Shown one piece after another: positions 4,122-46,699 of a stretch of 47,764 nt of DNA. Source of the DNA: a virus; the IMG/VR virus record IMGVR_UViG_3300049033_000044, positions 1 to 47,764 of that record; one strand, given 5' to 3'. The translations under genes were made by a program, and so were the position numbers. Under the pieces are notes generated by a model. That model saw only the letters and a list, made by a program, of their open reading frames with translations, searched no databases and was not told where the DNA came from. Position 1 is the first letter of the stretch. Every line of letters begins with the position of its first letter.

Positions 4122-4930
4122 CACTTCCTCACAATATCGTCAGACATGGTAGAAAGAGTCCCGATGTCCTCAGGCCCAAGCATCTCGATCGTGTCCGACA
4201 GTCTTGTCGACTCACCATCAATAACTTTCTCGCGCCCAAGTTGTTTCACGGTTCGCTGAGTCAGAGTCAACTGAATCGTTCCCAGCGAACCGGGGCCTGG
4301 AAGCTCGGGAGGAGAGCCATCCGACCCATACTGATTGATGTTGACCTGGACTCCGCCAGGGACTGTCGGCTGATTCATACCCGTTTTCCTCGTTGCGGAG
4401 TTCGCCACCTTCGCCACAGCCAAGATGTCACTCGCAGTGCTGACTCGCCCAGTCTCTACGAGCTTGGTGAGCTTTTTGAGCGCGGCATGTTCGAGCCGAT
4501 CCCAGTCGAAACCTCTTTTCCTCAGCGATTCCCTCTCAAGAAGCGCATCGAATCGCTTTGCAGACCACTCGGTGGGATTTGTAGCCTCCACCAGCATTTG
4601 AAGCTCGGGAATTGACGTCCGGAGTCGCTTAGCGAGCGCCACCATTGACTCAGAATCCCAATTCTCATCGCCATCCAGATACGCATCGAGGATATGCGTC
4701 TGAATCTCGCCCCAAGGAAGCCAATCGGCCACGGCCCCACCACTTACCGGGGCTATTTCTGCTGGCTGACTCACACGAGTGGGGTCATTTGCGCCTACCC
4801 CCTCCCCTTCCGCATTTTCTCCCTGAATCAGAAGATCAATCTCCTCTTGATTCATAGCCAAAACTTCATCGAGGGCAGCCTCAGCATCAAACGACCCCAT
4901 GGGCGCATCGAACTGACTGAATCTATTCAT
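4121..4930 (-). CDS. hypothetical protein (269 aa); positional candidate for the small terminase subunit
   Basis: Directly upstream of and translationally coupled to terL. Strong RBS GAGGAGG before ATG 4930. No motif-level support for the function. Confidence 0.55.
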   Translation of the reverse strand: MNRFSQFDAPMGSFDAEAALDEVLAMNQEEIDLLIQGENAEGEGVGANDPTRVSQPAEIAPVSGGAVADWLPWGEIQTHILDAYLDGDENWDSESMVALAKRLRTSIPELQMLVEATNPTEWSAKRFDALLERESLRKRGFDWDRLEHAALKKLTKLVETGRVSTASDILAVAKVANSATRKTGMNQPTVPGGVQVNINQYGSDGSPPELPGPGSLGTIQLTLTQRTVKQLGREKVIDGESTRLSDTIEMLGPEDIGTLSTMSDDIVRK

Positions 4931-5992: not shown

Positions 5993-6031
5993 AAAAACAA
6001 AAAGAGCCGCAAGGTGTTATCCCTGCGACTC
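5993..6031 (-). terminator. rho-independent terminator after the 309-aa early gene
   Basis: On the - strand: 8-bp stem GAGUCGCA/UGCGGCUC (one G-U pair; plus-strand 6024-6031 and 6004-6011), a 12-nt loop, then UUUUUGUUUUU (plus-strand A-run 5993-6003). Confidence 0.6.
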
Positions 6032-6058
6032 TCAAGATTGGTAGATGCTGGCCGATTC

Positions 6059-6988
6059 TTAGAAATCAATCTCGGCGGCGGCAGCAAGAGCCGTTTCATC
6101 GATCTTCGGCATCGTGTAGGTGAGGACCGTCGAATCGCGACCATCAACCCATGCAATGATTGCCGACGGATCAACCGGCGCTGGCTTACCATCGGTGTCC
6201 ATGAAATTCGGAGCGGCGGAGATCATGCCGCGCGCGATCTTCTCCCACATACCGATTGCTTCCATTGCCTGAGTCCGTGGGTTGGCCTTGGCATAGGCGG
6301 AGGAACGAATCGACTTGATAACGTCAGCCTTCGGAATCCCGACAAGCGCACCATGCACGGCCGGGGCCTTCGTCTTGAGAACGCCTTCCTTGAAGGGCTG
6401 CCACAGGGAATCAAAGGCTTCGGTATCGCCGGCGATCGATTCACGGGCGCTGCTGATGATATCTTCGATGGTTGCGGGCATTCCGGCAACAACCGTCTTG
6501 AAGTCGTCGGCGGTGAGGTCGGGCTGGCGCAGATTCGAAAACGCAACGTCAATGGCTTCCCGTTCGATCAGCTTTGCGATCCAGTCGCGAACCTTGGCAT
6601 CTTCGAGTCGTTCAAGGAAGTTGTCGGCGGTCGGGGCTTCGAAGACGACGATTGCCTTGACTCCATTGGTGTTGGACTTCTTGTCGCGGACGCCGACGGT
6701 TGCGACGCAAACCTGCTCGGCGGCTTCGATTCCATCGGCTCGCATAGAGAGTTCGACGCCGAAGAACGGATTGCCTTCGGAATCGGCGGTCTTGGCTGCA
6801 ACGGCTTCAATGTGTGCTGCGGCCTGTTCATAGGCGGATTCAGTCACAGTGGACTTGCCGCCCTTGTCGTCGGTCACTTCGACGTCGCGAGTCGTGAAGA
6901 ATACACGTGCGCCGCCCAATTCGTTGTTCAGGGTGCGAATCTGTTCTTTGTTCAGAAGAACGTTGAGTGCGGAGTTGTTCGTGGTCAT
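6059..6988 (-). CDS. hypothetical early protein (309 aa), C-terminus ...AAAAEIDF
   Basis: ORF track; RBS GAAGGGA before ATG 6988; coding-like GC3-rich codons; followed by its own intrinsic terminator. Confidence 0.75.
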   Translation of the reverse strand: MTTNNSALNVLLNKEQIRTLNNELGGARVFFTTRDVEVTDDKGGKSTVTESAYEQAAAHIEAVAAKTADSEGNPFFGVELSMRADGIEAAEQVCVATVGVRDKKSNTNGVKAIVVFEAPTADNFLERLEDAKVRDWIAKLIEREAIDVAFSNLRQPDLTADDFKTVVAGMPATIEDIISSARESIAGDTEAFDSLWQPFKEGVLKTKAPAVHGALVGIPKADVIKSIRSSAYAKANPRTQAMEAIGMWEKIARGMISAAPNFMDTDGKPAPVDPSAIIAWVDGRDSTVLTYTMPKIDETALAAAAEIDF

Positions 6989-7965: not shown

Positions 7966-7993
7966 AGTATACGCCTACAGAATTTCCTGTCAA
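7966..7993 (-). promoter_or_regulatory. leftward sigma70-type promoter TTGACA-N16-TATACT
   Basis: -35 = complement of 7988-7993 (consensus). -10 = complement of 7966-7971 (5/6 match to TATAAT). Sits in the divergent control region ~110 nt upstream of the first leftward gene. Confidence 0.6.
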
Positions 7994-10327: not shown

Positions 10328-10656
10328 CGACTCTCTCCGCATCTGACACACTCGATCGACTCATTGAGGCTGGATTTACATTCAGCCTCGAATTTCCTCA
10401 TCCTTCGAATGAACTTGAAGTCGAGTGCGAGTTCGAGATTGACTCATGGGGCAGCTCCAGCAACGGATGGGACGATCCGGGTGATGCGGCTGAATTCCAC
10501 CTCATCGACGTCACAGTCACGAACAAAGCCGACGAGCTGATTCACACCAAGGCTGAATTCAGCCAAGCGCAGTGTGAGTGGCTTGAGCAGCATTTCAACG
10601 ATGCGATTCAGCAGAAGTGCGCTGAATATGACGGGTTTAATGACCATGACGACTGA
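10324..10656 (+). CDS. strongly acidic small protein (110 aa; 26 Asp+Glu versus 4 Lys+Arg)
   Basis: ORF track. The GTG start overlaps the upstream stop (GTGA), with AAGGAG 8 nt upstream. Confidence 0.7.
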   Translation: MTTLSASDTLDRLIEAGFTFSLEFPHPSNELEVECEFEIDSWGSSSNGWDDPGDAAEFHLIDVTVTNKADELIHTKAEFSQAQCEWLEQHFNDAIQQKCAEYDGFNDHDD

Positions 10657-11518
10657 AATCGATCTCAAGCACTTTCCGGGTCCGGGGCACTATGCCTCGG
10701 ATTCCCTCGGCCCGACTCGCTCCGCTCATCTCCCTATCTCCATATTTGCACTACATGTGCAGCTGGTGACTCAGGACGGCAACATTCTGAGCAGTGAGCA
10801 GAGCAAGGGGTATTACTTCTTCCGCGACTCACACATCCCTCTGCCGCGCGCATGTACTGTGCTGGCATGGAATCGCATTTGTGTGCTCGGCAAACCGGAT
10901 TCGAAGCAATACTATCTCCCATTCCTCCCATCGCTGCGAGAAGAGGATGAAGTCGGGTCGGCTATCGGTGAGCGTGGCTCGCGAATCGCATCTCTGAGTC
11001 GCAAAAGCAAATATCATATGCGTGACTCCGAAGATCGAGTCGTGTGGGGCCCAGTCTACGGTTCCCAACTCGGCGCAAGCAATGTTCTGTGGCAAACCGA
11101 GCGCAGTGACTTTGCTGAATCACTCGTAACGGACTCCATGAACTTCATCGCCCCAGCCACCCACGAATCAATCCGCGATCGTATGACCTTCCTGGCTCAG
11201 CACGGATTCCCAGCCACTAATGCACTGATGAAGCACCTCAACATTCCGCGCATCTATCGACTCTTGTTTCAGTTTCTTGATCGATCGGCTGTGCAAGCCT
11301 GGGTGAGTCACTATAATTCATCGATGGCGCTGGTTAAGGTGGATCCAGACTCCATCGCGGCGGATTTCAAAGACATGACTCATCAGATGGTCGAAGCTCG
11401 GAAGACTCAGAAAGAGGAATCCGATGAAGTAAGTGATGACAATTTCGCTGATTCGCCACGGCGGAATAAAATTCCAAAAAATGGCCGTTTTTCGGGTATT
11501 GGCGACATGGATTTTTAA
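10646..11518 (+). CDS. hypothetical protein (~290 aa), C-terminus ...KNGRFSGIGDMDF
   Basis: ORF track 10574..11518. The start is uncertain: in-frame ATGs at 10601, 10628, 10640 and 10646, none with a clear RBS. 10646 minimises overlap with the upstream gene (stop 10654-10656). Confidence 0.6.
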   Translation: MTTEIDLKHFPGPGHYASDSLGPTRSAHLPISIFALHVQLVTQDGNILSSEQSKGYYFFRDSHIPLPRACTVLAWNRICVLGKPDSKQYYLPFLPSLREEDEVGSAIGERGSRIASLSRKSKYHMRDSEDRVVWGPVYGSQLGASNVLWQTERSDFAESLVTDSMNFIAPATHESIRDRMTFLAQHGFPATNALMKHLNIPRIYRLLFQFLDRSAVQAWVSHYNSSMALVKVDPDSIAADFKDMTHQMVEARKTQKEESDEVSDDNFADSPRRNKIPKNGRFSGIGDMDF

Positions 11519-11560
11519 TTTTTTCGGGGCTTGGCGCAAAAATTTTCTAAAATTTCACCC

Positions 11561-11589
11561 TTGCCCCTCTTTGGAAATTTTCGTATTAT
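11561..11589 (+). promoter_or_regulatory. internal sigma70-type promoter candidate TTGCCC-N17-TATTAT
   Basis: -35 at 11561-11566; -10 at 11584-11589; A/T-rich upstream tract. Lies in the 111-nt gap before gene 11630. Confidence 0.4.
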
Positions 11590-11629
11590 TGGCGCGTCGA
11601 AACAACGTAAAACCTAGGAAAATAGTCCC

Positions 11630-11821
11630 ATGCTCGCTAAGTCTGAATCAGTCAAAATCCGCCCCAACATGAAAGCAACCGCTCTATACTTTGCTCCTGA
11701 ATCGGGCGATTTGGTAGAGCGCAACTTCGATCTTTGGCGCGAAGAGCATCGCAAGAACTTTTTCCGCCTGATTCAGTGGGCGGTTTGCAATAAGATTGAA
11801 GTACGCGTTCGCCATTACTGA
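11630..11821 (+). CDS. hypothetical protein (63 aa)
   Basis: ORF track; AGGAAAA upstream. Confidence 0.55.
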   Translation: MLAKSESVKIRPNMKATALYFAPESGDLVERNFDLWREEHRKNFFRLIQWAVCNKIEVRVRHY

Positions 11822-11862
11822 GTCGGTCCTAAACCCTACTGCATACAAGAAAGGCTTACACC

Positions 11863-12894
11863 ATGTTCTCCGATTCTACAACTTTCGACTTCAACATTCT
11901 CGGAAACGACGACGCATTTACTGCGATTCAGGAAGCTGGATTGCATTATATTCGTTGCAGCGAATCTGGACAGATTGTCGCGGTTATGTCCGACGATTCA
12001 ATCCAGAAAGCAATCGAATTTGAGGTGTTCCAGAATCCCACAATGTCGGTTGAAGAGATTGTTGATTCAATGCAGATGCGTTGGTTCATTCAGTCTTCAC
12101 GCCCGGCCCCACACTTGACCGCAATTAAATCCCGCGATTCAATGCTTTACCTGCATTCGAATCATCCGCTGGACGCATTCGCTATTCTGGTTGGCCGTAT
12201 GCTTTTTGACTCGCCGCGTTACCGCAAGCAAATGTCGGAAAAAGATGCGCGATTCCAAAAGATGCTTTGGCTCACTGAGTTGGACAATGCTAAGCATCGT
12301 TTGGTTCAGGCGGAATACAAGCTCACCGAGAAATTCACGGCCGCTTGTGAAGCGTTGATTCGCATCGACGCTATCCATGACGTGCGTCAATGCCTTTACA
12401 CGGACATGATGCGTGAGACCGCCGAACTGATTCGCGACAATCCGCTTGATCTTGCTAACTTGCTGGACTTTATCGCGCACGTTGAATCAGATGCTCTCGA
12501 AGCTCTGACCAAGATGAAGCGCACTCCGCAAGGGAATCGCATGTCCATGTCGGCCGCTTCAGTTCTCGACATTGACGACGAATTGGTCACAGCACAGAAC
12601 GATTCAGCCGAAGACATGCGTCGTGCGAATCTCCGCAAGATTGAGCAGGCTCAACTCTACGCACGCCAACGCAATTCCGGCACTGTGCAGGTGATTCGAG
12701 GCAAACGCCCGGTTGTGCACCTTGCGGAAATTACAGGTGTCTTGCCGCCGGAATTGGCCGCTAAGTATAAGATTCAGGCTAAAGGTGCAGGTGCTAGCAA
12801 GGCACCGACTGAGCCCAAGGCTGGCAAGTCTAAAAAAGAAACTAAGGTTGCAAAAGCGCTCGCTCGCTTCGGCAATCTGAATCTTGATTTTTGA
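11863..12894 (+). CDS. hypothetical protein (343 aa), Lys-rich tail ending ...ALARFGNLNLDF
   Basis: ORF track; coding-like codon usage. Confidence 0.75.
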   Translation: MFSDSTTFDFNILGNDDAFTAIQEAGLHYIRCSESGQIVAVMSDDSIQKAIEFEVFQNPTMSVEEIVDSMQMRWFIQSSRPAPHLTAIKSRDSMLYLHSNHPLDAFAILVGRMLFDSPRYRKQMSEKDARFQKMLWLTELDNAKHRLVQAEYKLTEKFTAACEALIRIDAIHDVRQCLYTDMMRETAELIRDNPLDLANLLDFIAHVESDALEALTKMKRTPQGNRMSMSAASVLDIDDELVTAQNDSAEDMRRANLRKIEQAQLYARQRNSGTVQVIRGKRPVVHLAEITGVLPPELAAKYKIQAKGAGASKAPTEPKAGKSKKETKVAKALARFGNLNLDF

Positions 12895-12907
12895 TTGGAG
12901 TTGAGTC

Positions 12908-14914
12908 ATGAACAATCCTATGCCGCGTCGCTCCAATTTCTTGGATCAATTTAAGTCTGGAATCAAGACCAGTGAGCAGAAAGCAGCTGAAATCGACACT
13001 GGACTCTCGGCCGTAGATGAGGCCCGAGTCAATAAGATGGTCGGGCGTCTTTTAGACGAAATGCCCGAAGAAATCAAGGAATCAATGGGCATTGCTGACT
13101 ATGACGCCACGGCACCTGTTGATTCAGAGGCTGTGATCAATGTCGATCTGCGTCGTGCCCCGGCGACTAATGGTTTCCAGTTGCCGACTCGCGAAGAGGC
13201 TGGCCTCTCCAACCCAAACATCGTGCTTGACGAGTCGCAGGAGATTGCTGTCGGCCGACTCGCGAACGAGCAGTACGGTTGCCTTATTGGTGCAGCTGGC
13301 ACTGGTAAGACTACGGTTCTCAAGTACGTTCTCGATCGAATCATCTACGAAGATCAGTCCTTCGACGTTCGTATGCTTGCCGCCAACCAAGGACTCAACA
13401 TTGCCATGGTATCCTTTACGGGCATGGCAGTGCAGGTCATGAAGTCGAATCTTCCATCGTGGATGCACATTGCGTGCAAGACCATTCACTCGCTTCTGGA
13501 ATTCGCTCCAGAGCAAGTTGAGTCGAAAGATGGTGGCATGTCTCGTCGATTCGTTCCACAGCGCAACAATCTGCGCAAGCTGGATCACGATATCATCATG
13601 ATTGACGAAGCATCCATGGTCGGTGTCGAGCTTTGGACTCAGATTCTCGCTGCTTGCCGCTTCGGCACTCGCATCTACATGATTGGTGACTTGAATCAGC
13701 TCCCTCCGATCGTCGGCCAGTCTGTCTTCGGATTCGCTCTCGGTCAGTGGCATGTCTGCGAACTCACCAAGGTGCACCGCCAGAAAGACCCAGGTGCGAA
13801 TCGCATCGTCGAAGTCGCTCACGAAGTGCTCAATGGCAAGCCACTCACGTTTGATCAGGCCAAGGGGAATCCGGACTGGCGAGTCATCTTTCAGCCGATC
13901 CACGATGATCCGATCAAGGCGCATAACCAGATTTTGCAGATTCTCGATCAGCTACGCAAGCGCCGAGTCGATGCTGCAAATCCGGACAGCCCGATCATCT
14001 ATGATCCGTATCGTGATCGAGTCATGACAGCCGGCAACGGGTATGAGCAGGTTAACACATCTGCGATTCACCAGTTCCCGATCAACGACTCACTCTCGAC
14101 GCTGATCGAACCGCCGACGGATGAAAATCCTCGGATTCTTATAGACGGTGGTCGCGAACAGACTAAGAAGTTTGCGGTCAATCTGCGAATCATGGCGACG
14201 AAAAACGAACCGCCGGATATGGTCGATCGTGTTACCAATGGCATGACTGGCGTGATCACGTCGATTCGCCGCAATGGTAACTACACTGGCCGCTGGGATA
14301 ACTTCGGCACTGAAGATGAAGTGCGGGCTGCAACGGCTGCCAAGCTTGCCGCTCTGCGTTCTGGCGCTTCGAATCAGCAGACGATGCTCGAAGAGGTAGC
14401 AAACTTCGAACTGGAAGGTTTCGGTGATGACGTCGAACTATCGGGTGGCCAGAGTCAAGAAGAAATCGAAGGTGGCGGAGCTAGTAGCCATGTTATCGAC
14501 GTTACCTTTGACAATGGAGCAAGCCGAACCTTTGCGTCTAAAGCAGGAGTCGGTAGTCTCCAACTCGCCTACGCATCCACGGTCGCCAAGTGCCAAGGAT
14601 CGCAGTTTGACACGGCAATCATCATTTGCCACCCGGCTGCGAAAGCCATGCTGAGTCGAGAATGGCTCTACACGGCAATCACTCGTGCGACCCAGCGAGT
14701 CATCATCTTGGGGACCGAGTTCGCTATCAGACAAGCGGTGTCCAAGCAAAAGATTCGAGGTGCCAACTTGCAGGAAAAGGTCAACCGGTATCTGCAAATG
14801 TCCGCCGAGGGCGAACGTGTCGGCCAAGTGCGAGTCAGAATGAACGTTCCGTTGCGAGTCGAAGACTACAACGGCCAGACCGTCAAGACGCGTTACGAGT
14901 ATGATCTTGAGTGA
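12908..14914 (+). CDS. SF1 RecD/Dda-like DNA helicase (668 aa)
   Basis: Walker A GAAGTGKTT; Walker B IIMIDEASMV; C-terminal SF1 motifs ASTVAKCQGSQFDTAIII and LYTAITRAT. GGAG 7 nt before the ATG. Confidence 0.8.
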   Translation: MNNPMPRRSNFLDQFKSGIKTSEQKAAEIDTGLSAVDEARVNKMVGRLLDEMPEEIKESMGIADYDATAPVDSEAVINVDLRRAPATNGFQLPTREEAGLSNPNIVLDESQEIAVGRLANEQYGCLIGAAGTGKTTVLKYVLDRIIYEDQSFDVRMLAANQGLNIAMVSFTGMAVQVMKSNLPSWMHIACKTIHSLLEFAPEQVESKDGGMSRRFVPQRNNLRKLDHDIIMIDEASMVGVELWTQILAACRFGTRIYMIGDLNQLPPIVGQSVFGFALGQWHVCELTKVHRQKDPGANRIVEVAHEVLNGKPLTFDQAKGNPDWRVIFQPIHDDPIKAHNQILQILDQLRKRRVDAANPDSPIIYDPYRDRVMTAGNGYEQVNTSAIHQFPINDSLSTLIEPPTDENPRILIDGGREQTKKFAVNLRIMATKNEPPDMVDRVTNGMTGVITSIRRNGNYTGRWDNFGTEDEVRAATAAKLAALRSGASNQQTMLEEVANFELEGFGDDVELSGGQSQEEIEGGGASSHVIDVTFDNGASRTFASKAGVGSLQLAYASTVAKCQGSQFDTAIIICHPAAKAMLSREWLYTAITRATQRVIILGTEFAIRQAVSKQKIRGANLQEKVNRYLQMSAEGERVGQVRVRMNVPLRVEDYNGQTVKTRYEYDLE

Positions 14915-15138
14915 CGGCCATGTTGATTCCGATTGTGTGCGACTACTGCGCAAATTCATTCGGCGTCGACTGGGAACCTAGGCAGAAGCGGGACTTAGGG
15001 CGGGTCTTGCGCTTTCCATCTGTGACTCTCCACAGAGGTTGTGCGCAAGACTTCCTCCATCTGCTCTGCATCGAGATTCCCGAAGCCAAAAATTCACCAT
15101 TCATTAAGCACTTCCGTGCGGGAGTAGACCATGTTTAA
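14911..15138 (+). CDS. hypothetical protein (75 aa, one CxxC pair)
   Basis: ORF track. The GTG start overlaps the helicase stop (GTGA); alternative ATG at 14920. Confidence 0.45.
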   Translation: MTAMLIPIVCDYCANSFGVDWEPRQKRDLGRVLRFPSVTLHRGCAQDFLHLLCIEIPEAKNSPFIKHFRAGVDHV

Positions 15139-15535
15139 ACCGACTCGCATACAAGCAGCAACCCATGACTTTGTACATCCGGAGGGATTCACCGTCCCTG
15201 CCCGGGTAAGCCCGCAATACTTGACTTGCTTCGGAGAGAAGCGAACGGTTGTTGACACGCATTGGAATCCTTCCGACCGCGATATCATCAACCTCATCAA
15301 CGGCGGATTCATCAGCATCCGTAACGTCGGTGATCGACTCCCAGCATTGTGGCTCACTACTACCGAGGCTGAGCCGCAATTCTCCATGAGCAATGATCGC
15401 AAGCACTACGCAGAGCACATGCTAGCTATGTGCGCTATGATTCGAAAGCTCGACGTCGGCTGCCGACCAGCTCAAGTAGCAATGGACCAAGTCGTCATTG
15501 CACTCAAAGACTACTGCGAAGGATTCACCAAGTGA
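15131..15535 (+). CDS. hypothetical protein (134 aa)
   Basis: ORF track; GGAG 6 nt before ATG 15131. Confidence 0.65.
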   Translation: MFKPTRIQAATHDFVHPEGFTVPARVSPQYLTCFGEKRTVVDTHWNPSDRDIINLINGGFISIRNVGDRLPALWLTTTEAEPQFSMSNDRKHYAEHMLAMCAMIRKLDVGCRPAQVAMDQVVIALKDYCEGFTK

Positions 15536-15897
15536 AACCCAAACAAAACATGAAGATGATCGACACGACGATTCATCAACTCACAGCCGCTCAAGTTCTC
15601 GCCGAAGTGATTCAGTGCTTCAGCGAGGACACGACACGTGATGTGATCATCGCGACCGCCAAGGGGCGCGGTGATCAGATGGTAGCTCAGATTCGTGTGG
15701 AGCTATCACGCGCCAAAGCAGAACACAAGCGAGCCAAGCGTCCGTTCCGGCATTTCGGATTCACTGCAACGAATCTCGATCTTGTCGTTGCCGGGCAAGA
15801 CGGGGTTAAGCGTGAGCATCGACTCCTCAGTTACCGAGTCACGCCGTTGCAGGCCATGAAGAACTACGCAGATCGAATCGATGGAGTTGACGCATGA
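15532..15897 (+). CDS. hypothetical protein (121 aa; 115 aa if ATG 15550 is used)
   Basis: 3' part of track ORF 15430..15897. GTG 15532 overlaps the upstream stop (GTGA), with AAGGA upstream. Confidence 0.5.
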   Translation: MKPKQNMKMIDTTIHQLTAAQVLAEVIQCFSEDTTRDVIIATAKGRGDQMVAQIRVELSRAKAEHKRAKRPFRHFGFTATNLDLVVAGQDGVKREHRLLSYRVTPLQAMKNYADRIDGVDA

Positions 15898-16577
15898 GTG
15901 ATATCAGGAAACCATCTTTGCTGGATTCGATCCGGGCGAAGAACGCAGCAACTCCGCCAGCGGCCCCAGCCAAGGTCGACGAGCCGCGCAAGCCTGTATT
16001 CCCGAATCTTCAACGAAACAAGCCAGCGATTCAAGCTGCGGTTGCGGAACAGCCCAAGCCAGTCGCCAGTCCAGCACTCGCTGCTCTTGCTGCGACGAAG
16101 CCAAGCCCGACTCCGCCGGCGGCACCCAAGCCCAATCTGCTCGCAGCTGCGGCAGCTAAGGGAGTCGAGAAGAAGCAAGCTATGGATCAGGATTACTCCT
16201 ATCTCCACGCCGAGCTTCCGACCGATATCAAGGAGCTGTGTCAGCGATTCGACGACATGATTGTGCGCGACGGAGGTATCGGACTCATCAACATCGACCT
16301 CGGCCGCGCATACGTCAAAAAGATCATGGTCATGCTCAAGGAGAATCCTGAGTTTGACGGCATGATTATCGACCGCGACGTGCATAATGTTATGGCATTT
16401 GTTCGCAAGACTCGCGAAGCTGCTATCGACACGATTAACGTCAAGGTCGAAAAAGCAACCAAGGCAGCCAAAAACAAGGCCGCCAAGACCGGACGATTCG
16501 GCAGCATCGAAGCTATCGACTTCGGCGCAACAGGCCCAGCAGTGAGTCTCGAAGACTTGCGCGACGTGGAGTTTTGA
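15894..16577 (+). CDS. hypothetical protein (227 aa): Pro/Ala-rich N-terminus, Lys-rich tail with ...TGRFGSIEAIDF... and terminal ...DVEF
   Basis: ORF track; ATGA start/stop coupling; GGAG 8 nt upstream. Confidence 0.7.
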   Translation: MSDIRKPSLLDSIRAKNAATPPAAPAKVDEPRKPVFPNLQRNKPAIQAAVAEQPKPVASPALAALAATKPSPTPPAAPKPNLLAAAAAKGVEKKQAMDQDYSYLHAELPTDIKELCQRFDDMIVRDGGIGLINIDLGRAYVKKIMVMLKENPEFDGMIIDRDVHNVMAFVRKTREAAIDTINVKVEKATKAAKNKAAKTGRFGSIEAIDFGATGPAVSLEDLRDVEF

Positions 16578-16578
16578 T

Positions 16579-17595
16579 ATGACCCAGCTTATTTTGGCGC
16601 GCAAGCCAGACGTGAATCAGTATCCTGTTGACCACATGGGTCGCAGGTTCATCGTCACCAGCCACAGCATCGACGGCACATTCGAATCCTGCCCGCGCCG
16701 CTTCGAGTTTCGCCACATCTATCAGCGACTCCCGTTGACTGAGCCTCGCGGACTCGCAGCTGACGTCGGCACTGCCTTGCATGAAGCGACGCAGGAATGG
16801 ACCAAGGAACGCGACACGACTGCCGCATACATGACTCTGCTCAAGTGGTGGCCGTGGCGTCTCGAATCTCAACGCAAGGAAGCAGGACTCAATGACCATA
16901 AACGTACTCTCGGCAATGCCATCTTGCTTCTTGAGCAGATCCAAGCAGACCCCTTCTGGGACGACTGGGAAGTGGCCCGTCTCCCCAATGGGGAATATGC
17001 CATTGAGTTGGCGTGGCGAATCAACCACGTCAGTCTTGGCAGTTTCCCTCATCCGGTCGACGGTGGACCCGTCTATCTTGCAACTCAAGGCAAGATCGAC
17101 TGGATTCTACGGCATCGCAGGGATCGGAGTCGATTCATGGTCTGCGACCTGAAGACTACTGTGCAGGATGAGCCGGCTCAGCAAGCCAGCTTCCGATTCA
17201 GTGGTCAGGCAGGTCAGTATGGACTCGTCCTTGCTCAGGCCATTAACAGCCCGTGGCGTACCGAAGGCATGGATGTTACCTACTTCATCGCCGAGTTCTC
17301 GGACCATGGGCAGCCCATCACGAATCCGATGGAGCACCACCTTGAGCCAGAAGAAATCTACGAGTCGATCGAAGCCAAGAACGAACGGCTTCAACGCATG
17401 ATTCGCATGGGCAACAGCGGCTTCTGGCCTCGTCGCTCTCATGGGTGTGCATTCTATGGCACGCCTTGCGGATTCCTCGAAATCTGCCCGCGCAGGGATC
17501 CAGAGTATCTGGAGAACTGGTTTACATTCGACCGCGACCTAGAATTCGTGCGTGAATCACGAGTCTATGAGCCGCTCTGGACTCTGGAGGCATGA
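16579..17595 (+). CDS. Cas4/RecB-family PD-(D/E)XK nuclease with Fe-S cysteine cluster (338 aa)
   Basis: N-terminal Cys (FESCPRRFEF); GKIDW...FMVCDLKTT (D...D/ExK); QAGQYGL (QxxxY); C-terminal CAFYGTPCGFLEIC cluster. Confidence 0.7.
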   Translation: MTQLILARKPDVNQYPVDHMGRRFIVTSHSIDGTFESCPRRFEFRHIYQRLPLTEPRGLAADVGTALHEATQEWTKERDTTAAYMTLLKWWPWRLESQRKEAGLNDHKRTLGNAILLLEQIQADPFWDDWEVARLPNGEYAIELAWRINHVSLGSFPHPVDGGPVYLATQGKIDWILRHRRDRSRFMVCDLKTTVQDEPAQQASFRFSGQAGQYGLVLAQAINSPWRTEGMDVTYFIAEFSDHGQPITNPMEHHLEPEEIYESIEAKNERLQRMIRMGNSGFWPRRSHGCAFYGTPCGFLEICPRRDPEYLENWFTFDRDLEFVRESRVYEPLWTLEA

Positions 17596-17873
17596 CAATG
17601 GCAGACCCATTAGTAGAGGCATACGAGCGCGGCCTCGACAAACAGCGCGCAGACGATGAAGAGTTTGCTGCGTCGATTCGTACTGCGATGGATGACCGCA
17701 TGACTCAGTTCGTCAATCTTGATGCGCAAGACAAGCTGCATCACTATACCATGCTGCTTGCTCAGATGGGCGGCATGGGAATCCGATGGCCTAAGTCTTT
17801 GAATGCGTTTGAAGAACTCGCTAGTAAAATGTCAAAGCACATTGTCGATCGAATGATCAGCGGGGGAGGGTGA
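17592..17873 (+). CDS. hypothetical protein (93 aa)
   Basis: ORF track; ATGA coupling with the nuclease gene. Confidence 0.6.
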   Translation: MTMADPLVEAYERGLDKQRADDEEFAASIRTAMDDRMTQFVNLDAQDKLHHYTMLLAQMGGMGIRWPKSLNAFEELASKMSKHIVDRMISGGG

Positions 17874-18007
17874 TGACCTCTTATACCATTGCTAGGGTCT
17901 ACGACGCATCGACTCGTGAGTGGGTCATCGTATATTCGGTCTTCCGGTACTATGCCGGAGGACTCAGCAGAGTCAAACGGTTCTTCGAGCCAACACTGGG
18001 GATTTGA
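17873..18007 (+). CDS. hypothetical small protein (44 aa)
   Basis: Hand-translated: MTSYTIARVYDASTREWVIVYSVFRYYAGGLSRVKRFFEPTLGI. TGATG coupling to the upstream gene, with a GGGGGAGGG RBS. Below the track length cutoff. Confidence 0.45.
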   Translation: MTSYTIARVYDASTREWVIVYSVFRYYAGGLSRVKRFFEPTLGI

Positions 18008-18010
18008 ATC

Positions 18011-18163
18011 ATGAGCAATGAAGTGTTGAGACTCTTTAATTTGTTTTTGCTGGCAATAGTCTGTGCTCTGTTCTTCATTTTGTGGGGCAGTATTCGCTAC
18101 GACGCCAATCAGAACAAGCGTATTGAGAATCTGGAGAGAATCAATGGACTTGCACTGGACTGA
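18011..18163 (+). CDS. small single-pass membrane protein (50 aa)
   Basis: Hand-translated: MSNEVLRLFNLFLLAIVCALFFILWGSIRYDANQNKRIENLERINGLALD. Below the track cutoff. Confidence 0.45.
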   Translation: MSNEVLRLFNLFLLAIVCALFFILWGSIRYDANQNKRIENLERINGLALD

Positions 18164-18260
18164 CTACATCTCATTCGCCGGATGGGCATTGATGTTCATC
18201 TTTTTCGTCATCGATCTCCCGACTCAGCTCGCGAAGATCAAGAATCGCAGGAGAAAATAG
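18144..18260 (+). CDS. small single-pass membrane protein (38 aa)
   Basis: 3' part of track ORF 18063..18260: MDLHWTDYISFAGWALMFIFFVIDLPTQLAKIKNRRRK. GGAGAG 5 nt before ATG 18144. Confidence 0.45.
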   Translation: MDLHWTDYISFAGWALMFIFFVIDLPTQLAKIKNRRRK

Positions 18261-18679
18261 TGGGTGACACTCCAAACATTCTCATGGTCGGCCCGTTCTT
18301 TCCCAAGATTCTTCGGAAGAACGGCGGCGTCATGCCCGATCTGTCACTTGAACAAATGGTTGACTCCTACTGTGCATGGTATGTTGCTCGCAACTGCATG
18401 ATCGCACTCAAGGAGATTCCAGAGCAGGTGACTCTCGAAGGTGATCTCGATATCACCGTCAACCTCAAAGACGTCATGCGCGGTGCATTCATCGCGTATG
18501 GAATCGACCCCGACGTGGGTGACAATCTCAACCGAGTCATGGGACTCATGCCGTTGGTGCGTCGTCAGGCGTTCAATGACAAGCTGTTCTGGGATTCACG
18601 TTTTCAAGCGTTCCTCGACTCGGGTGGGCATGCCTATCGCATCATCACTCGTGATCCGGACAAACTCAACGAGAGCTAG
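18260..18679 (+). CDS. hypothetical protein (139 aa)
   Basis: Track ORF 18182..18679. Start moved to GTG 18260 (AGGAG 6 nt upstream, overlapping the upstream stop); alternative ATG at 18284. Confidence 0.55.
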   Translation: MGDTPNILMVGPFFPKILRKNGGVMPDLSLEQMVDSYCAWYVARNCMIALKEIPEQVTLEGDLDITVNLKDVMRGAFIAYGIDPDVGDNLNRVMGLMPLVRRQAFNDKLFWDSRFQAFLDSGGHAYRIITRDPDKLNES

Positions 18680-19455: not shown

Positions 19456-20493
19456 ATGCCACTCCTGAATCAAGTCCGTGACCAGCAAGCATTCTCTGTG
19501 CATCTGTTGCTTTGCGGACGTAGCAAGACCGGGAAGACCAAATACATAGCTGATATGCTCAAGCTTGGATTCATGGTCTTCTATGTCGACAACGATAACG
19601 GTGCGGCGACTCTCATTCGCGACACCAAAGATTCTCCCGAAGCCATGCAGCGTTGCTACTATGTGCGGACGGAGAATCTTTGGGAGTTCACGCAGACGTT
19701 CTTCGCTCGAATCATCCACCAGTGGAACATGACTCAGGATTGCATCTATGAAAAGGGCAAAGCAAGCCCCGACGATGTGATCATGACAATCAACCGCAAC
19801 AAGATTCCGAGCGGCGTTGTCTTCGTGTTCGACTCGTGGACTTCGCTCTGCATCCAGCTCATCAACAAAGCGTCGGGCGGAGTCGATGCCGAAGCTGCTC
19901 GTCTGGATCAGGATATCTACGGTTCGATGAATCGCAGCGCGAATACTGTGGGCATGAACATTCAGTCATTCCCGCATCATGTCGTTTATCTGGCGCACAC
20001 CGATTATTACGAGCGCCGGGAATCTCCGCCCGGACTCGCTAAAGAGATGGCCAAGCAGGCGAATCAGATCATCAAGGAAAATGTTGAAATCCCTTGGTCT
20101 GTGAGTCGCCCGCATGGCTATTCGATTCCCAAGTTCTTCACCGATATCGGCTATATGGGTATCGACAACATAGGAAATTTCACGCTTGACTTCCGACAGT
20201 CGAAAGATAGAGTAGGCGCTGGATCACCGAGGAAAATCGGCGACCCAACCAAAGACCTTCGATTCGACAATGCTTTCTTTGAAGGCAAAGTGCCTGTCGT
20301 GAGTCAACCATTTGCAGATTGGGTCATTGAAGAACCTGCTTCAGTGATTCTTGCACGACTCGAAGCTGAGGCCGAAGAAAAGCGGCTCAAGGCGGAAGAG
20401 GCTAAGGCAGCTAAGGCAGCAGCGAATCCCGCTCCTGTCGCTGCGGCGAAACCGGGATTGTCGCTCCCCGGTAAGTCACTGCTCGGAAAGTAA
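19456..20493 (+). CDS. P-loop ATPase, Sak4/AAA_24-like recombination ATPase candidate (345 aa)
   Basis: Walker A GRSKTGKT near the N-terminus; Walker B-like VVFVFDSWTSL; Ala/Lys/Glu-rich tail; sits next to an SSB-like gene. The family assignment is inferred. Confidence 0.55.
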   Translation: MPLLNQVRDQQAFSVHLLLCGRSKTGKTKYIADMLKLGFMVFYVDNDNGAATLIRDTKDSPEAMQRCYYVRTENLWEFTQTFFARIIHQWNMTQDCIYEKGKASPDDVIMTINRNKIPSGVVFVFDSWTSLCIQLINKASGGVDAEAARLDQDIYGSMNRSANTVGMNIQSFPHHVVYLAHTDYYERRESPPGLAKEMAKQANQIIKENVEIPWSVSRPHGYSIPKFFTDIGYMGIDNIGNFTLDFRQSKDRVGAGSPRKIGDPTKDLRFDNAFFEGKVPVVSQPFADWVIEEPASVILARLEAEAEEKRLKAEEAKAAKAAANPAPVAAAKPGLSLPGKSLLGK

Positions 20494-21226: not shown

Positions 21227-21727
21227 ATGTTTGCGGGAATCAAATCCGTCAACTTCAACGACCTCCACAATCGAGAGACTTTCATGGTGTTTGACTCCAA
21301 GGAAAAGCAGAAAGCCTTGGACTTCCACTATGCTCTCATTGTTGGCAGAGAGAAAGAAAACATTGCGAGGACTCCGTACGTTTGCTACTACGTCGGACTC
21401 ACGCAAGTGGAATTCGCGCGGCTCAGGCTGTGCCCCGACGCTTTGCTCGATGAGTTCTCTTTCATCGGCATTCCCAACGATACGATCGATGTGAGTCACG
21501 ACGTCTACAAAGTCTTCCTGCAAGACAAGCCGATGGCTTGGGTGGGAATCGATCGTCCACAGTACGACCATGATGAGTTTGTTGAGTTCATTCGAATCGT
21601 ACTCGAAATGAAAGAGATGTTGTCATGCAACAAGAAAGACCTGTCCTTCTTATCTTCGAGGATGCCGTTGGAATCACTGAAGGCTACAAGGGAATCCTCC
21701 GACGCATCGCCGGCTCCGCTGGAATGA
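21227..21727 (+). CDS. hypothetical protein (166 aa)
   Basis: Track ORF 21203..21727. ATG 21227 with GGAGA 6 nt upstream. The last ~34 codons overlap the next gene and have poor codon usage (TTA, TCA, AGG). Confidence 0.6.
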   Translation: MFAGIKSVNFNDLHNRETFMVFDSKEKQKALDFHYALIVGREKENIARTPYVCYYVGLTQVEFARLRLCPDALLDEFSFIGIPNDTIDVSHDVYKVFLQDKPMAWVGIDRPQYDHDEFVEFIRIVLEMKEMLSCNKKDLSFLSSRMPLESLKATRESSDASPAPLE

Positions 21728-22449
21728 GTGATGATCGGGTGCGAATCGTGCACCGGTCAATCTACAAGACATTCCAGCGGAAGTCAATTCTCCAATACCT
21801 GCCTCGGAAAACGCAGCCTCGATTCGTCGACAGCTACCAAATGCAGCAGCGTATGAAGGCATGGATTAGCGAGGCGATTCGACAGCACAGAGCCAGTGCC
21901 GTGATCTGCATGGACCCATCTATGCTCTTCATGATGACGGACGATTTAGAGATTGCGAGCCTGGAAAAGTTGCGCGGCGGTGTCTATGTTCTCTTCGGGA
22001 TTCCATGGATCGTCTCGCTGCCGCTGACCGCCTATCACAAGTCGGCCAAGGCCAAAGACGTCGCCAAGCTCAACGAAGGATTCACCGAGAAAGGTGACTT
22101 CGAAGATTTCATGAACGACGAGATGGGGTCTGACGATGATGACGAGGATTCAGAGACTGATAGCGATGACAACGGTGATACTGGCGATTCAGATAGTGAT
22201 TCAACATTTAGCTCCGAGTCAGCAGCACGAGACAAAGAAGAAAACTATCGACCACAATGGTTCGATCCAGTCATCGTGCCCATGGGCCGAGTCACACTAG
22301 AATTCGATTTCGCAAAGGCTGGTATTTTGCTGAATCGACAACATGTATACGAGGTACAGAATGGAAAGAGAGCGGCTGATTTGCTGGGATCCGAAGAGCC
22401 TGCAGGAAGCGTACAACTTCCTGGCCTCATCACCCCTGAAATGCACTGA
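21625..22449 (+). CDS. UDG-fold-like (degenerate family-4 uracil-DNA-glycosylase-like) protein with acidic low-complexity region (274 aa); possible polymerase accessory domain
   Basis: PVLLIFEDAVGITEGYKGILRRIAGSAGMSDDRVRIVHRSIYK resembles the GEAPG...G...L...GL.R..VYITN layout with catalytic residues not conserved. Acidic tract GSDDDDEDSETDSDDNGDTGDSDSDS. GC3-rich codons from 21625 onward. The fold call is tentative. Confidence 0.4.
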   Translation: MQQERPVLLIFEDAVGITEGYKGILRRIAGSAGMSDDRVRIVHRSIYKTFQRKSILQYLPRKTQPRFVDSYQMQQRMKAWISEAIRQHRASAVICMDPSMLFMMTDDLEIASLEKLRGGVYVLFGIPWIVSLPLTAYHKSAKAKDVAKLNEGFTEKGDFEDFMNDEMGSDDDDEDSETDSDDNGDTGDSDSDSTFSSESAARDKEENYRPQWFDPVIVPMGRVTLEFDFAKAGILLNRQHVYEVQNGKRAADLLGSEEPAGSVQLPGLITPEMH

Positions 22450-24556
22450 CATCGAGACGATTCCCCACAAGAAGTTGACGAAGAAGCAACAACGATCATT
22501 CTTCGATCGCATGGGATTCGACCCGAACTCCGGCTTCGCGCAGAAAATGCCGTGGCGGATGACAGTGGTTTCATACAGCGGATACTCTCCTGATTCCAAA
22601 CGAATCCATTCTTACTTGCTGCCGTTTGTGACAGCCAAGGATAGATTCGCTGAGGTGCCTCTGCACTTCGACGAGATTTTCAAAACCGCAGTCGCGATCA
22701 ACGATCTGCCGAATCCAACCACTCTCCAGAACGGAGTCTACGATGCGTCGTGGTTTCTCTGGATGAACATGCCGTTGCGCAACTATGCTTACGACAGCAT
22801 GACTCTTTGGTGGTCTGTGTATCCGGATCTCCCACGCCGACTCGACTATATCTCTTCGGTTCTGCTCACCGACTACGTGTACTGGAAAGCGAATCGAAAA
22901 GCAGAAGACTTCATGGACTATTGCAACTATGCGATGGACGACACGGAGTCAACTCTGCGCAACACAGTCAAGCTGATTGAAATGGCTTGTAACGATGATC
23001 GAATCATGCGCAATTTCTACCATGCGCACCTTCGTTGCTTAGCCAGCCTCGAAATGTCGGCCGCCGGGATGGCTGTTGACGAATCCGTGATGGATGAAAT
23101 CAGGAAGACTCTCGATGCCAAAGCAATCAAAGCGCTCGAACGCCTCAGATACGTCGTGGCAGACCCTAACTTCAATCCTAACTCTGCCCCGCAGAAGAAG
23201 GATCTTATCTATTCGATTCTTAACGCGAAACCCCGAGGACCTAAGGGTAAATTCGTCAAGCGAATCGAGGACGCTTCCACCGGAGCTATCGCCCTTCGCG
23301 CAATGCGTTCTGACCACCCGGTCTTTCGACGAGTCATTGATGCTACGCTCGACGCTATCGCACCTGCCAAGCAAATCTCCAATGTTGTGGGACTCGCGCG
23401 ATTTCCTGGTGGATCAACGGGCTCTCGATTCGTCACCACTTATGACGGCGTCGCAACGACAACTTCTCGACTCGGTTCTCGCGGTAACGCACTTGGATTT
23501 GGTGGTAACGCTCAGAATATCCGCAAGGATTACCGTCGATTCGCACGCGCGGACGTTGGCCATTTCCTGCTTGAAATCGACTTGTCCGCCAGTGACGATG
23601 TGTTTGTTGCATTCGAGTCAGCCGAGCCAAAGAAAATTGAGTTGGTGCGAAGCGGCAAAGATGCCCATGCTACCAATGCTCTGATCTTCTTCCCGAACTG
23701 GACCTACGATGGAATCGTGGCTGGGAAGAAAGCCAAAGATGATCGAGTCGTGCACCCGATTACGGGCGTTCGTCAGATCACCAAGAAAGTTGTGCACGGG
23801 ACTCACTATCTTATGGCTGGCTTGACTCTGCTTATGAGTGCCGGTCGCGAAGCTATTGTGGCCGCAGCCAAGGAACTGGGGTATGAAGATGCTAACTCGT
23901 GGACTCAGGAAAAACTCGTGGCTTTTTGCGACCAGCTTTCTCACAAGTTCCGACTACATTACCCAAGATTCCAGTTGGAGCATGACTCCCCAGACTCTTG
24001 GTATCGTGAGCTTCGTCGAGAAGTTGTTACCACGGGAGGATTCACTACCCCATTTGAGTTCTTCCAGCGATTCTCCAGCGACCCAAGGGATGATGCTACG
24101 CTCCGTGCTGTGGCGGCAACTGCTGGGCAAGCCGGCACTGCCGGTCGAATCAACATGGTCATGGAAGAACTGTTCCACGGATACATCCCGCCTCGATTCA
24201 GAGACGGTCCAAACCCTCATCGAGATGCTCGACCACTCACGGTTGGTCCTAGTCTCAACGGAGTTTCTACTCGACTACAAACGCATGACTCACTCACTTT
24301 TGACGTCAACCCAATGCATCCCAAGTGGCTGCAGGGAGTCAGAGATGTTTTCGAAGTCTTTTCCCGACCGGTGGTTATCAAGGGAGAGACGGTGGTTGTT
24401 GGAATCGAAGCTGACGTCAGCATTTGGTGGGCCGGTAAAGAGACCTACGGGATTCACTGTGCCGAAGATCTCCTGAAACCTATCAAGGACGATCCAGACG
24501 GATTCAACTGGCTACAAAAAATGTCAATTGATTACGTCCAGCCCGAGCTTGCTTGA
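22361..24556 (+). CDS. family A DNA polymerase with 3'-5' exonuclease domain (731 aa)
   Basis: ExoI-like LKCTDIETIP; motif A-like EIDLSASDD; motif B-like RQITKKVVHGTHYLMAG; motif C-like LQTHDSLTF. Start set at ATG 22361 (GAGG 6 nt upstream); the track start is 22343. Confidence 0.85.
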   Translation: MERERLICWDPKSLQEAYNFLASSPLKCTDIETIPHKKLTKKQQRSFFDRMGFDPNSGFAQKMPWRMTVVSYSGYSPDSKRIHSYLLPFVTAKDRFAEVPLHFDEIFKTAVAINDLPNPTTLQNGVYDASWFLWMNMPLRNYAYDSMTLWWSVYPDLPRRLDYISSVLLTDYVYWKANRKAEDFMDYCNYAMDDTESTLRNTVKLIEMACNDDRIMRNFYHAHLRCLASLEMSAAGMAVDESVMDEIRKTLDAKAIKALERLRYVVADPNFNPNSAPQKKDLIYSILNAKPRGPKGKFVKRIEDASTGAIALRAMRSDHPVFRRVIDATLDAIAPAKQISNVVGLARFPGGSTGSRFVTTYDGVATTTSRLGSRGNALGFGGNAQNIRKDYRRFARADVGHFLLEIDLSASDDVFVAFESAEPKKIELVRSGKDAHATNALIFFPNWTYDGIVAGKKAKDDRVVHPITGVRQITKKVVHGTHYLMAGLTLLMSAGREAIVAAAKELGYEDANSWTQEKLVAFCDQLSHKFRLHYPRFQLEHDSPDSWYRELRREVVTTGGFTTPFEFFQRFSSDPRDDATLRAVAATAGQAGTAGRINMVMEELFHGYIPPRFRDGPNPHRDARPLTVGPSLNGVSTRLQTHDSLTFDVNPMHPKWLQGVRDVFEVFSRPVVIKGETVVVGIEADVSIWWAGKETYGIHCAEDLLKPIKDDPDGFNWLQKMSIDYVQPELA

Positions 24557-25011: not shown

Positions 25012-25584
25012 ATGACAAAGATTCGCATACTCACGCTGAACGGACCTCTCGGCTCCGGAAAGACGTGGATCAAGAAGCAACTTGCTAGTACGCTGGCGAG
25101 TCACAGCATCAAGATGGCTTCCGCTAGCTGGCAGGACCCACTGCGTCGAGCATGTTACGCGTTGCTCAATGTGTCGGAATCAGTCGACTACGACACTTTC
25201 AAGGTTACGGACTATTTCGGCCGCACCGGACGTCAATGGATGATTGCTATGAGCGAAGACTTCGCCAAGCAATTTGATCCGCTGTTCTTCTCTCGAGTCT
25301 TGGCAGATACTCTCCGCAGCAGTCCTCTACCACATTACGGTCGGCACCTATTCATTGCCGATTCAAACGGCTTTGATACTGAGCTTTCTTTTCTGCGAGC
25401 GCAGACCGATATCGAAGTCTTAGCCGGCTGCATTTGTCCGCCTGACTCACCGCCTCCCGGTGAACGTTGGCGCCCAGACGACAGTCGACTCAATCTTTCG
25501 CACATGTGTGCTCAAGTCGCACCAACTTCGGGAGAGTTGCTTCCGAAGCTCATGAAATCATTGCAAATACGGGGATGGATTTAA
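25012..25584 (+). CDS. P-loop kinase-like protein, dNMP-kinase-like candidate (190 aa)
   Basis: N-terminal Walker A LNGPLGSGKTW and small size. Start moved to ATG 25012 (GAAGGGA upstream) from track start 24934. The substrate is unknown. Confidence 0.45.
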   Translation: MTKIRILTLNGPLGSGKTWIKKQLASTLASHSIKMASASWQDPLRRACYALLNVSESVDYDTFKVTDYFGRTGRQWMIAMSEDFAKQFDPLFFSRVLADTLRSSPLPHYGRHLFIADSNGFDTELSFLRAQTDIEVLAGCICPPDSPPPGERWRPDDSRLNLSHMCAQVAPTSGELLPKLMKSLQIRGWI

Positions 25585-25586
25585 CC

Positions 25587-46643: not shown

Positions 46644-46667
46644 TGTTGTGTTCCTTTCAAGAATCCA

Positions 46668-46699
46668 GGCCATCCATTTCATTCCAGACACGGATGGCC
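46668..46699 (-). promoter_or_regulatory. intercistronic stem-loop between the scaffold and capsid genes
   Basis: GGCCATCC (46668-46675) pairs with GGATGGCC (46692-46699); the loop is 16 nt. Possible processing site or attenuator. Confidence 0.4.

Follow-up and report, generated by a model that had tools for sequence, protein, structure and literature searches.

A 47,764-nucleotide (nt) viral DNA from IMG/VR (record IMGVR_UViG_3300049033_000044, positions 1 to 47,764, referred to as the window in the rest of the text) carries four orphan genes, here called A, B, C and D, whose products bear a similar short peptide at or near their C-termini. Genes A (10646..11518, + strand, 290 amino acids (aa) from the ATG of an open reading frame (ORF) that opens at GTG 10574), B (11863..12894, +, 343 aa) and C (15894..16577, +, 227 aa) code for orphan early proteins and belong to a rightward early and replication block that spans ~8.3-27 kb. 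B always lies directly upstream of the gene for a Dda-like helicase, and C ends 1 nt before the start of a nuclease gene. Gene D (6059..6988, -, 309 aa) is the second gene of a short leftward early operon. By sequence, none of the four products gave a match above threshold to PHROG, Pfam or NCBIfam families or in profile searches of PDB sequences.

The tail of A, PRRNKIPKNGRFSGIGDMDF (11456..11515, +), ends the protein and consists of a basic run, the dipeptide RF and then I-G-D-M-D-F (core RFSGIGDMDF, 11486-11515, +). The tail of B, KSKKETKVAKALARFGNLNLDF (12826..12891, +; core RFGNLNLDF, 12865-12891, +), likewise ends its protein. In C the copy is internal: KAAKNKAAKTGRFGSIEAIDF (16461..16523, +; core RFGSIEAIDF, 16494-16523, +) is followed by 17 residues, GATGPAVSLEDLRDVEF (16524..16574, +), which form a second acidic-hydrophobic end closing with DVEF before the stop codon. 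The tail of D, ALAAAAEIDF (6062..6091, -), consists of a hydrophobic-[DE]-F end alone. All four ends read exactly as a first-pass annotation of the window had reported them; its inclusion of D as a fourth carrier holds for the hydrophobic-[DE]-F end and fails for the basic run and the RF, both of which are missing. The annotation also described the encoding nucleotides as different, and the three cores are indeed spelled with different codons (CGTTTTTCGGGTATTGGCGACATGGATTTT in A, CGCTTCGGCAATCTGAATCTTGATTTT in B and CGATTCGGCAGCATCGAAGCTATCGACTTC in C), thereby placing the similarity at the level of the peptide and not of a DNA repeat. Since both the codons and the genomic contexts differ, a DNA repeat or a regulatory overlap was rejected.

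The full layout comprises a Lys/Arg-rich run of ~10-15 residues, RF[GA], often followed by D or N, and hydrophobic-x(1-3)-hydrophobic-[DEN]-[FL]. Spacing within the last element is hydrophobic-x-hydrophobic-x-F in B and hydrophobic-x-x-hydrophobic-x-F in A, C and D. The motif lies inside the protein in C, and in some B tails two further residues follow it (..LDFNL, ..GDFKM), so that a free terminal Phe, which had been presented as the hallmark of the docking peptides invoked for these proteins, appears not to be needed. Such tolerance of position is typical of docking motifs.

In the six-frame translation of the window, the strict pattern [GA]RF.?G.{3,4}[LIM]DF matches exactly three times, each time at the end of one of the named ORFs (11483-11515 in A, 12862-12891 in B and 16491-16523 in C). 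When the 52 called proteins were each shuffled internally 20,000 times, at least one strict match appeared in only 17 of the 20,000 shuffles and two or more in none, showing the motif to be rarer than chance, the outcome on which the first-pass annotation had staked its case. Endings of the form [LIMV][DE]F occur in 4 of the 52 proteins; a single shuffle produced three and no shuffle produced four. As the pattern was picked after seeing the data, these numbers overstate its significance, and we took conservation in relatives as the independent and real test.

A sigma-70-like promoter (TTGACA-16-TATACT, 11/12 positions; 7966..7993, -) lies upstream of a 253-aa gene and D, and a terminator-like hairpin with a 13-bp stem and a T run (6002..6033, -) directly follows the stop codon of D; both are consensus matches only. 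The near-consensus promoter (7993-7966, -) and the hairpin (6033-6002, -) frame the 253-aa gene and D, suggesting a short leftward early operon and agreeing with the earlier assignment of D to the early genes. All four carriers are plausibly early proteins.

Conservation of the tails in related phages

Relatives were gathered as six IMG/VR contigs recovered with helicase and B-family queries, as eight further loci taken around the ten B homologues and 22 D homologues found by protein searches, and as three contigs from a scan of Joint Genome Institute (JGI) metagenomes, two of which were already among the relatives. The conservation sample covers about 14 related uncultured phage genomes, designated below by L numbers where needed, and 67 A-D tails were collected. 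Further members of the clade occur in the Logan runs SRR16126873, SRR8571172, SRR10686863, SRR28521186, SRR32051693, SRR33317124 and SRR20064708. The protein bodies in these relatives are 25-40% identical to those of the window, the closest pair excepted, and the tail is kept in ~14 genomes, as expected of a peptide that is conserved in homologues though their bodies diverge. In all four families the tail columns are better conserved than the linker preceding them: mean column identity is 0.44 versus 0.31 in family A, 0.54 versus 0.49 in C and 0.55 versus 0.43 in D, and in family B the tail reaches 0.73, the linker 0.51 and the folded body 0.57. Orthologous tails vary synonymously in their codons (CGC/CGT/CGA/AGA, TTC/TTT, GAT/GAC), showing that selection acts on the peptide.

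The tail is most constant in family B, where RF is present in 19 of 19 homologue tails, R335 and F336 are invariant and a hydrophobic-x-[FL] end is found in 17 of 19 (typical ends being KALARFGNLDIDF, AERFGDINFDF, AARFGDFDFTL and ASRFGDLSSLDFNL). In family A, for which eleven homologues were aligned and 15 tails counted, RF is retained in 9 of the 15; ends of A homologues include GRFGALSDIEF, GRFSGLADIEF, SRFGDIDLLNL, SRFGDMSGINF, SRFSSIDDINF, GRFADLGDISF, GRFGPNQVDF and NRFDGMKDLNLEF, and degraded tails such as KQDFSMIDL, AGFGDSLSSLSL and MFKALDLPETLL occur in the L020, L023, L024, L003, L006 and L015 lineages. Family C lies directly upstream of the nuclease and keeps the basic run and [NGD]RF[GA] in 8 of 9 members. 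Its second element is also found in homologues, with a conserved Pro, as ..LP..L.D[MLI]SD[FL]..[FL] (L001, L002, L003, L005, L017, L019 and L020), examples of such ends being ..LEDLRDVEF, ..DAFADMKDIEL and ..LKEISDFGDLS. Among the 24 tails of family D, 21 have a hydrophobic-x-[FL] end (for instance LAGLDF, LAGIEF, LAAIQF, LAALEF or IVLEL) and none has the basic run or RF. Ends of the form hydrophobic-[DENQST]-F account for 8/15 A, 11/19 B and 16/24 D tails, Leu replacing Phe in whole lineages.

In the AlphaFold model of B, residues 11-270 are helical (predicted local distance difference test (pLDDT) score of 72) and residues 273-343 are of low confidence, with pLDDT below 50 over 273-294, 307-328 and 337-343. 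A short helix (329-336) stands just ahead of RF and the tail does not fold back on the body, the model thus depicting what is apparently a flexible appendage in a disordered region. Foldseek returned no PDB match for the model of B.

Comparison of the family profiles with hhalign aligned the tail alone between A and B (18 columns, E = 0.0014) and between C and B (14 columns, E = 0.0023). Between A and C the last ~77 columns aligned (probability 64%, E = 6.6e-5), including a D-P...D.D element ahead of the basic linker, and comparison of D with A, B and C revealed nothing common beyond the last residues. The carriers had been described as having no other visible similarity; this stands for A-B and C-B and is not secure for A-C, where part of the sharing could reflect common descent and not independent recruitment.

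A tblastn search of phages with a 22-aa tail consensus gave no match, and when IMG/VR was scanned at the DNA level with the degenerate pattern RFG[ND]-hydrophobic-x-hydrophobic-DF-stop, three known relatives and one chance match (L025) were all that came back. The motif is thus confined to this clade. We describe it as a clade-specific short linear motif, of which the four tails are copies, that of D in a reduced form. As in linear motifs generally, it is short, falls in a low-confidence region of the B model, is conserved on a variable background and sits on non-homologous carriers, the A-C alignment being a caveat to the last point.

Tail variants also travel together within genomes. In L003, RFAA is found in both B and C; in the L020/L023/L024 lineage, Leu stands in place of Phe at the end of A and B, and also of C where it was recovered (L020); and in L006, the most divergent genome, the tails of A, B, C and D are all remodelled. 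Such joint variation is what a common receptor predicts.

Proposed docking and competing explanations

On balance, we lean towards the motif being a docking peptide that attaches early proteins to one common partner. Carried on flexible linkers, it would bring several early proteins to the same site on that partner; a groove would receive the Phe of RF together with the alternating hydrophobic residues, and the basic run would strengthen binding electrostatically, to an acidic surface or to DNA. The docking idea of the first-pass annotation is upheld as far as a peptide-level motif on dissimilar early proteins is concerned, given the conservation, the contrast with the linkers, the B model and the hhalign results; the hubs that it named are not. 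Judging by gene context only, the partner we favour is a phage replication or recombination protein (helicase, nuclease, Sak4-like ATPase, family A polymerase or primase), because B always adjoins the helicase, C always adjoins the nuclease and the motif was not found outside the clade. The polymerase is one possible partner.

A small ORF of 63 aa (11630-11821, +; 68-72 aa in relatives) sits between A and B in all relatives, suggesting that A, the small ORF, B and the helicase gene form a fixed cassette. Its product is a candidate partner or adaptor.

The motif is a variant of a known principle and fits no sequence-defined motif class that we examined. Its best parallel is found in bacteriophage T4, where gp43, gp55 and gp33 have interchangeable hydrophobic-acidic clamp-binding C-termini that are functional also when internal (PMC2988020). 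The likeness is limited to the layout, several functionally different proteins in both cases bearing one short, conserved, hydrophobic-acidic epitope at the C-terminus, after a variable and flexible linker. The motif described here differs in its added basic run and invariant RF[GA], and the receptor in T4 is the phage's own clamp gp45, whereas no clamp gene was detected here: no gp45-like clamp or clamp-loader family was matched by the remaining orphans of at least 190 aa, those of the entire 8.3-27 kb early region among them, in searches of PHROGs, Pfam or NCBIfam, a scan in which not every orphan was compared with all three, several virion and small ORFs were left outside and remote homologues may have been missed, and Foldseek with the D model gave no clamp-like match. 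The tip of the bacterial single-stranded DNA-binding protein (SSB; ..DDDIPF) resembles the motif in using a hydrophobic-aromatic tip on a disordered tail as a hub address. However, the A-C tails have neither Pro-Phe nor an acidic run, and the Pro-Phe of the SSB-type tip D-[IL]-P-F occurs in none of the collected tails. Moreover, in SSB one protein addresses many partners, whereas here many proteins carry one address.

Several observations weigh against docking onto a common partner. RF is lost in 6 of the 15 family A members, where the motif is dispensable or replaceable. A and C may carry a common, mobile C-terminal module of ~77-80 residues and not just the tail. With just 3-6 residues matching the others, the conserved end of D could have another role. 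The co-variation of tails within genomes stems from few independent evolutionary events, and phylogeny confounds it. Finally, the charge layout of the A and B tails equals that of the FtsH degron of lambda CII.

This last point leads to a proposal that the first-pass annotation had not raised and that we consider unlikely although several features speak for it: the tail would be a degron by which a host AAA+ protease (FtsH-like, ClpXP or Lon) recognises the early proteins and removes them once late development begins. The protease would read the hydrophobic-[DE]-F end, and an adaptor could read the basic run with RFG. All four carriers are plausibly early proteins, and if they had a degron in common, the presence of one tag on unrelated proteins of this class would be explained as well. 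AAA+ proteases need unstructured tails as initiation sites, and in its model B bears its tail on a long low-confidence linker. CII ends with ..NKKRPAATERSEQIQMEF, its FtsH degron, and RSEQIQMEF is listed as an FtsH degron (PMC8138137); CII's final 16 residues are both required and enough for degradation by FtsH (PMC5869508). Like the carriers described here, CII (..KKRPAATERSEQIQMEF) is an early phage protein with a flexible tail, in which a basic run precedes hydrophobic-x-hydrophobic-Glu-Phe-COOH, and with the same charge layout: the last 20 residues of CII carry a net charge of +1 and the last seven one of -2, compared to +0.3 then -1.6 in A and +1.6 then -1.3 in B, the tails of bacteriophage T7 being quite different. 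D-type ends (..LAAIQF) and the end of gp44 of Pseudomonas phage 119X (..AAIQSEF) look like ..IQMEF. Nevertheless, the degron of CII is known from a single protein and has no RF[GA] element. Recognition of C-termini by FtsH is generally described as loose and non-polar, which leaves unexplained the nearly invariant RF[GA][DN] located 6-9 residues from the end, and in C the RFG motif is internal. In addition, the phage appears lytic, as no integrase or repressor was noticed, which removes the lysis-lysogeny rationale that applies to CII, and no CIII-like inhibitor was noticed in the phage.

The first-pass annotation had proposed the host sliding clamp as the most plausible hub. Entry of the tails into the hydrophobic cleft of the beta clamp DnaN, which would recruit the carriers to replicating DNA or block host clients, now seems improbable. 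Clamp clients often have their motif at the extreme C-terminus, and B-type ends such as N-L-D-I-D-F, N-L-N-L-D-F and D-I-N-F-D-F show the alternating spacing of QLxLxL, the hexapeptide class of clamp-binding motif. T4 provides a precedent for three proteins on one clamp (PMC2988020), and phage proteins do use the host clamp, as illustrated by Mu C with its near-consensus QHDLF and QPDLF (PMC12867686). QL[SD]LF and QLxLxL peptides are also short, often C-terminal and rich in alternating hydrophobic residues. Yet in the 67 tails there was no instance of QL[SD]LF or QLxLxL (consensus taken from PMC12867686), nor of the relaxed patterns Q-hydrophobic-x-hydrophobic-[FLW] and Q-hydrophobic-x-hydrophobic-x-hydrophobic, and not one has the consensus Gln. 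Acid and hydrophobic residues come in the opposite order, the last three residues being hydrophobic-acid-Phe and not acid-Leu-Phe, the spacing in A, C and D (hydrophobic-x-x-hydrophobic-x-F) differs, and clamp-binding motifs contain nothing that corresponds to the invariant RF or to the basic run. Across bacteria the cleft hardly changes, yet the motif is limited to one phage clade, within which L006 and L003 have remodelled forms of it.

We hold out similarly little hope for a T7-style interaction, in which hydrophobic-D-F-COOH tips would bind a basic patch of the phage's family A polymerase. This phage does have such a polymerase, and Asp-Phe endings form a tip common to two replication proteins of T7, gp2.5 (..EDGDF) and gp4 (..NDTDF). 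PDB 6P7E contains a DTDF peptide that mimics the gp4 tail, and the front basic patch (K587, K589, R590 and R591) is described as the contact of the acidic gp2.5 tail, modelled onto the polymerase (PMC12339929). The acidic tip of D, together with its OB-like strand order and weak matches to SSBs and STN1, could make it an analogue of gp2.5. The AlphaFold model of D has a mean pLDDT of 86, with low confidence at the last residues, and its residues 27-116 run strand-strand-strand-helix-strand-strand before a helical domain, an order that we take to be that of the oligonucleotide/oligosaccharide-binding (OB) fold. Foldseek searches of PDB and BFVD with this model gave no significant match (all probabilities ≤0.38), the weak matches including STN1 and several bacterial and mitochondrial SSBs (probabilities 0.06-0.09), and hhalign of D against T7 gp2.5 and against the SSB of Polaromonas phage Tiera gave nothing. 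An SSB-like nature of D is thus a lead only, based on the strand order and the weak Foldseek matches, and the analogy with gp2.5 is correspondingly weak.

The comparison with T7-type acidic tails, which the first-pass annotation had also drawn, fails on charge. The T7 tails are strongly acidic, whereas those of A and B are slightly basic: the net charge over the last 20 residues is -14 for gp2.5 and -7 for gp4 versus +0.3 for A, +1.6 for B and -2.2 for D, and the A-C tails, net basic ahead of the tip, oppose an electrostatic fit to a basic patch. T7 depends on its C-terminal Phe, according to work cited in PMC12339929, whereas the motif described here may be internal or extended, so that the terminal carboxylate is not conserved. 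The polymerase of this phage is too diverged from T7 gp5 for the basic patch to be placed, BLASTP giving no usable alignment.

Least probable is a virion-packaging address, comparable to the cargo-loading peptides of encapsulins, or an amphipathic-helix membrane anchor: basic C-termini of some scaffolding proteins bind coat proteins, and a virion-module protein (34512-35264, -) ends with ..KPFNWASGFGNLFEGIGEN, sharing FGNL with B (one homologue ends with GIGNLFDGIDF), but its motif PFNWxxG-hydrophobic-GN-hydrophobic-F comes from a much wider family beyond the clade and has neither basic run nor RF, the carriers are early genes adjoining replication genes, and the C-terminal half of the tail has 2-3 acidic residues plus Gly and Asn and is non-helical in the B model. 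A membrane-targeting helix was rejected on this composition and on the lack of a predicted helix over the last seven residues of the B model. The virion protein was likewise rejected as a fifth carrier, its FGNLF element belonging to the different, much wider family motif. That low-complexity protein keeps PFNWxxG[LF]GN[LI]F across a wide family (92 representatives, E ≤ 0.001), and its likeness to the early-protein tail seems superficial.

Genome context and tail tips of distant phages

The first and last 127 nt of the window are identical (1-127 and 47638-47764), an exact duplication that makes the window a complete genome of ~47.6 kb, circularly assembled or terminally redundant. A megablast search with 15 kb of the genome against phage records gave no match, i.e. 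it has no close cultured relative there, and the family A polymerase shares ~26% identity with those of Pseudomonas 119X/PaP2-like phages, EBPR podovirus 3 and Polaromonas phage Tiera. There are no tRNA genes in the genome, a scan of bacterial genomes gave no match, and tail-fibre matches were scattered over Proteobacteria. The rightward block contains genes for the Dda-like helicase (superfamily 1B, Dda/RecD-like; 12908-14914, +), a Cas4-like exonuclease of the PD-(D/E)XK nuclease type (16579-17595, +), a Sak4-like ATPase (19456-20493, +), the family A polymerase (22343-24556), a primase (25467-27023) and a deoxynucleoside monophosphate kinase. The leftward structural genes include those for TerL (2580-4124), a likely portal (629-2617), a scaffold-like protein (46716-47519) and the major capsid protein (45441-46691); in the relatives, the capsid, portal and adaptor genes belong to SU10-type Pfam families.

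Three further features of this block deserve mention. The helicase and the nearby nuclease, the latter with a C-terminal Cys cluster (..HGCAFYGTPCGFLEICPRR), appear to resemble a split Dna2-like helicase-nuclease pair. A 274-aa ORF (21625-22449, +) overlaps the start of the polymerase gene by ~100 nt and has a long acidic insert rich in Asp and Ser (DDDDEDSETDSDDNGDTGDSDSDS), which the 217-222-aa homologues of relatives lack. A 165-aa orphan (18182-18679, +) has a C-terminal stretch, RFQA[WF]LDSGG[HR].Y..[VI]TR[ED]P, which is near-invariant in all relatives examined and far better conserved than the remainder of the protein.

Other tail tips are found in distant phages. In Tiera, three proteins end with ATDF, PSDF and TSDF, the SSB ends with DDDIPF, and a C-like protein of 280 aa has a basic run followed by ..LTAEELSQKFADL. 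Two of the Tiera SDF/TDF proteins are encoded at the left end and one beside the SSB gene (L029; 143-814 (-), 1937-2356, 8781-9146 and 9156-9593), and their tips compare with the ..DTDF of T7 gp4. In Pseudomonas phage 119X, gp01 ends with ..AELDW and gp57 with ..SEMDW, and gp44 has a basic run followed by ..EEMAAIQSEF; no homology was detected by hhalign between A-D and the 119X proteins at equivalent positions (gp57, gp56, gp44 and gp01). In the C-like proteins of Tiera, 119X (gp44) and Aeromonas phage P5, a basic run likewise precedes an acidic-hydrophobic end. In P5 (L033), the protein encoded upstream of the helicase (15022-16155) ends with ..PTQLAALRARLQRG and the helicase itself (16158-18077) with ..PEQLAALQKPLIGDN. 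Both P5 ends read P-[TE]-Q-L-A-A-L, a different common tail at the same genomic position that comes closer to a clamp-binding-like QLxxL. These tips hint that lineage-specific tail tags are common in phages with this replication module.

The Sak4-like ATPase has a conserved C-terminal tail of its own (..LPGKSLLGK, GGLLSGKK, GGLLSAK or SGIFGKK), its relatives being encoded at 8697-9746 in L001, 16498-17505 in L002, 16598-17728 in L003 and 30913-31869 (-) in L031. Since 119X gp36 ends with SFLAGLKKK, this second, different tail motif of Sak4-type proteins persists across distant phages.

A broader and more tentative proposal, which we put forward as a possibility with the odds somewhat against it, is that the motif belongs to an undescribed address-tag system in a clade of uncultured SU10-capsid podophages, in which a bipartite tail, made of a basic run with RF[GA] and a hydrophobic-x-hydrophobic-D-F part, addresses at least three, perhaps four, early families to a single dedicated receptor, related groups (Tiera, 119X and Aeromonas P5) having their own lineage-specific versions. 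The receptor could be a new replisome-organising hub among the orphan or replication proteins, or a programmed-turnover pathway in a lytic phage.

The four carriers are complete orphans, without Pfam, PHROG, NCBIfam or PDB sequence match and, for the modelled B and D, without structural match. The shared tail is the only functional clue to them and predicts that they act through one partner, for which a peptide of 10-20 residues would be a small and cheap fishing reagent. If the partner is a replication protein, it would show how accessory factors assemble without a clamp in a phage that has a Dda-like helicase, a Cas4-like nuclease, a Sak4-like ATPase and a family A polymerase; if it is a protease, the tails would mark this lytic phage as a rare example of programmed turnover of several substrates. 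With differing tips recurring in Tiera, 119X and P5, tail tags on early proteins may be a general, under-noticed feature.

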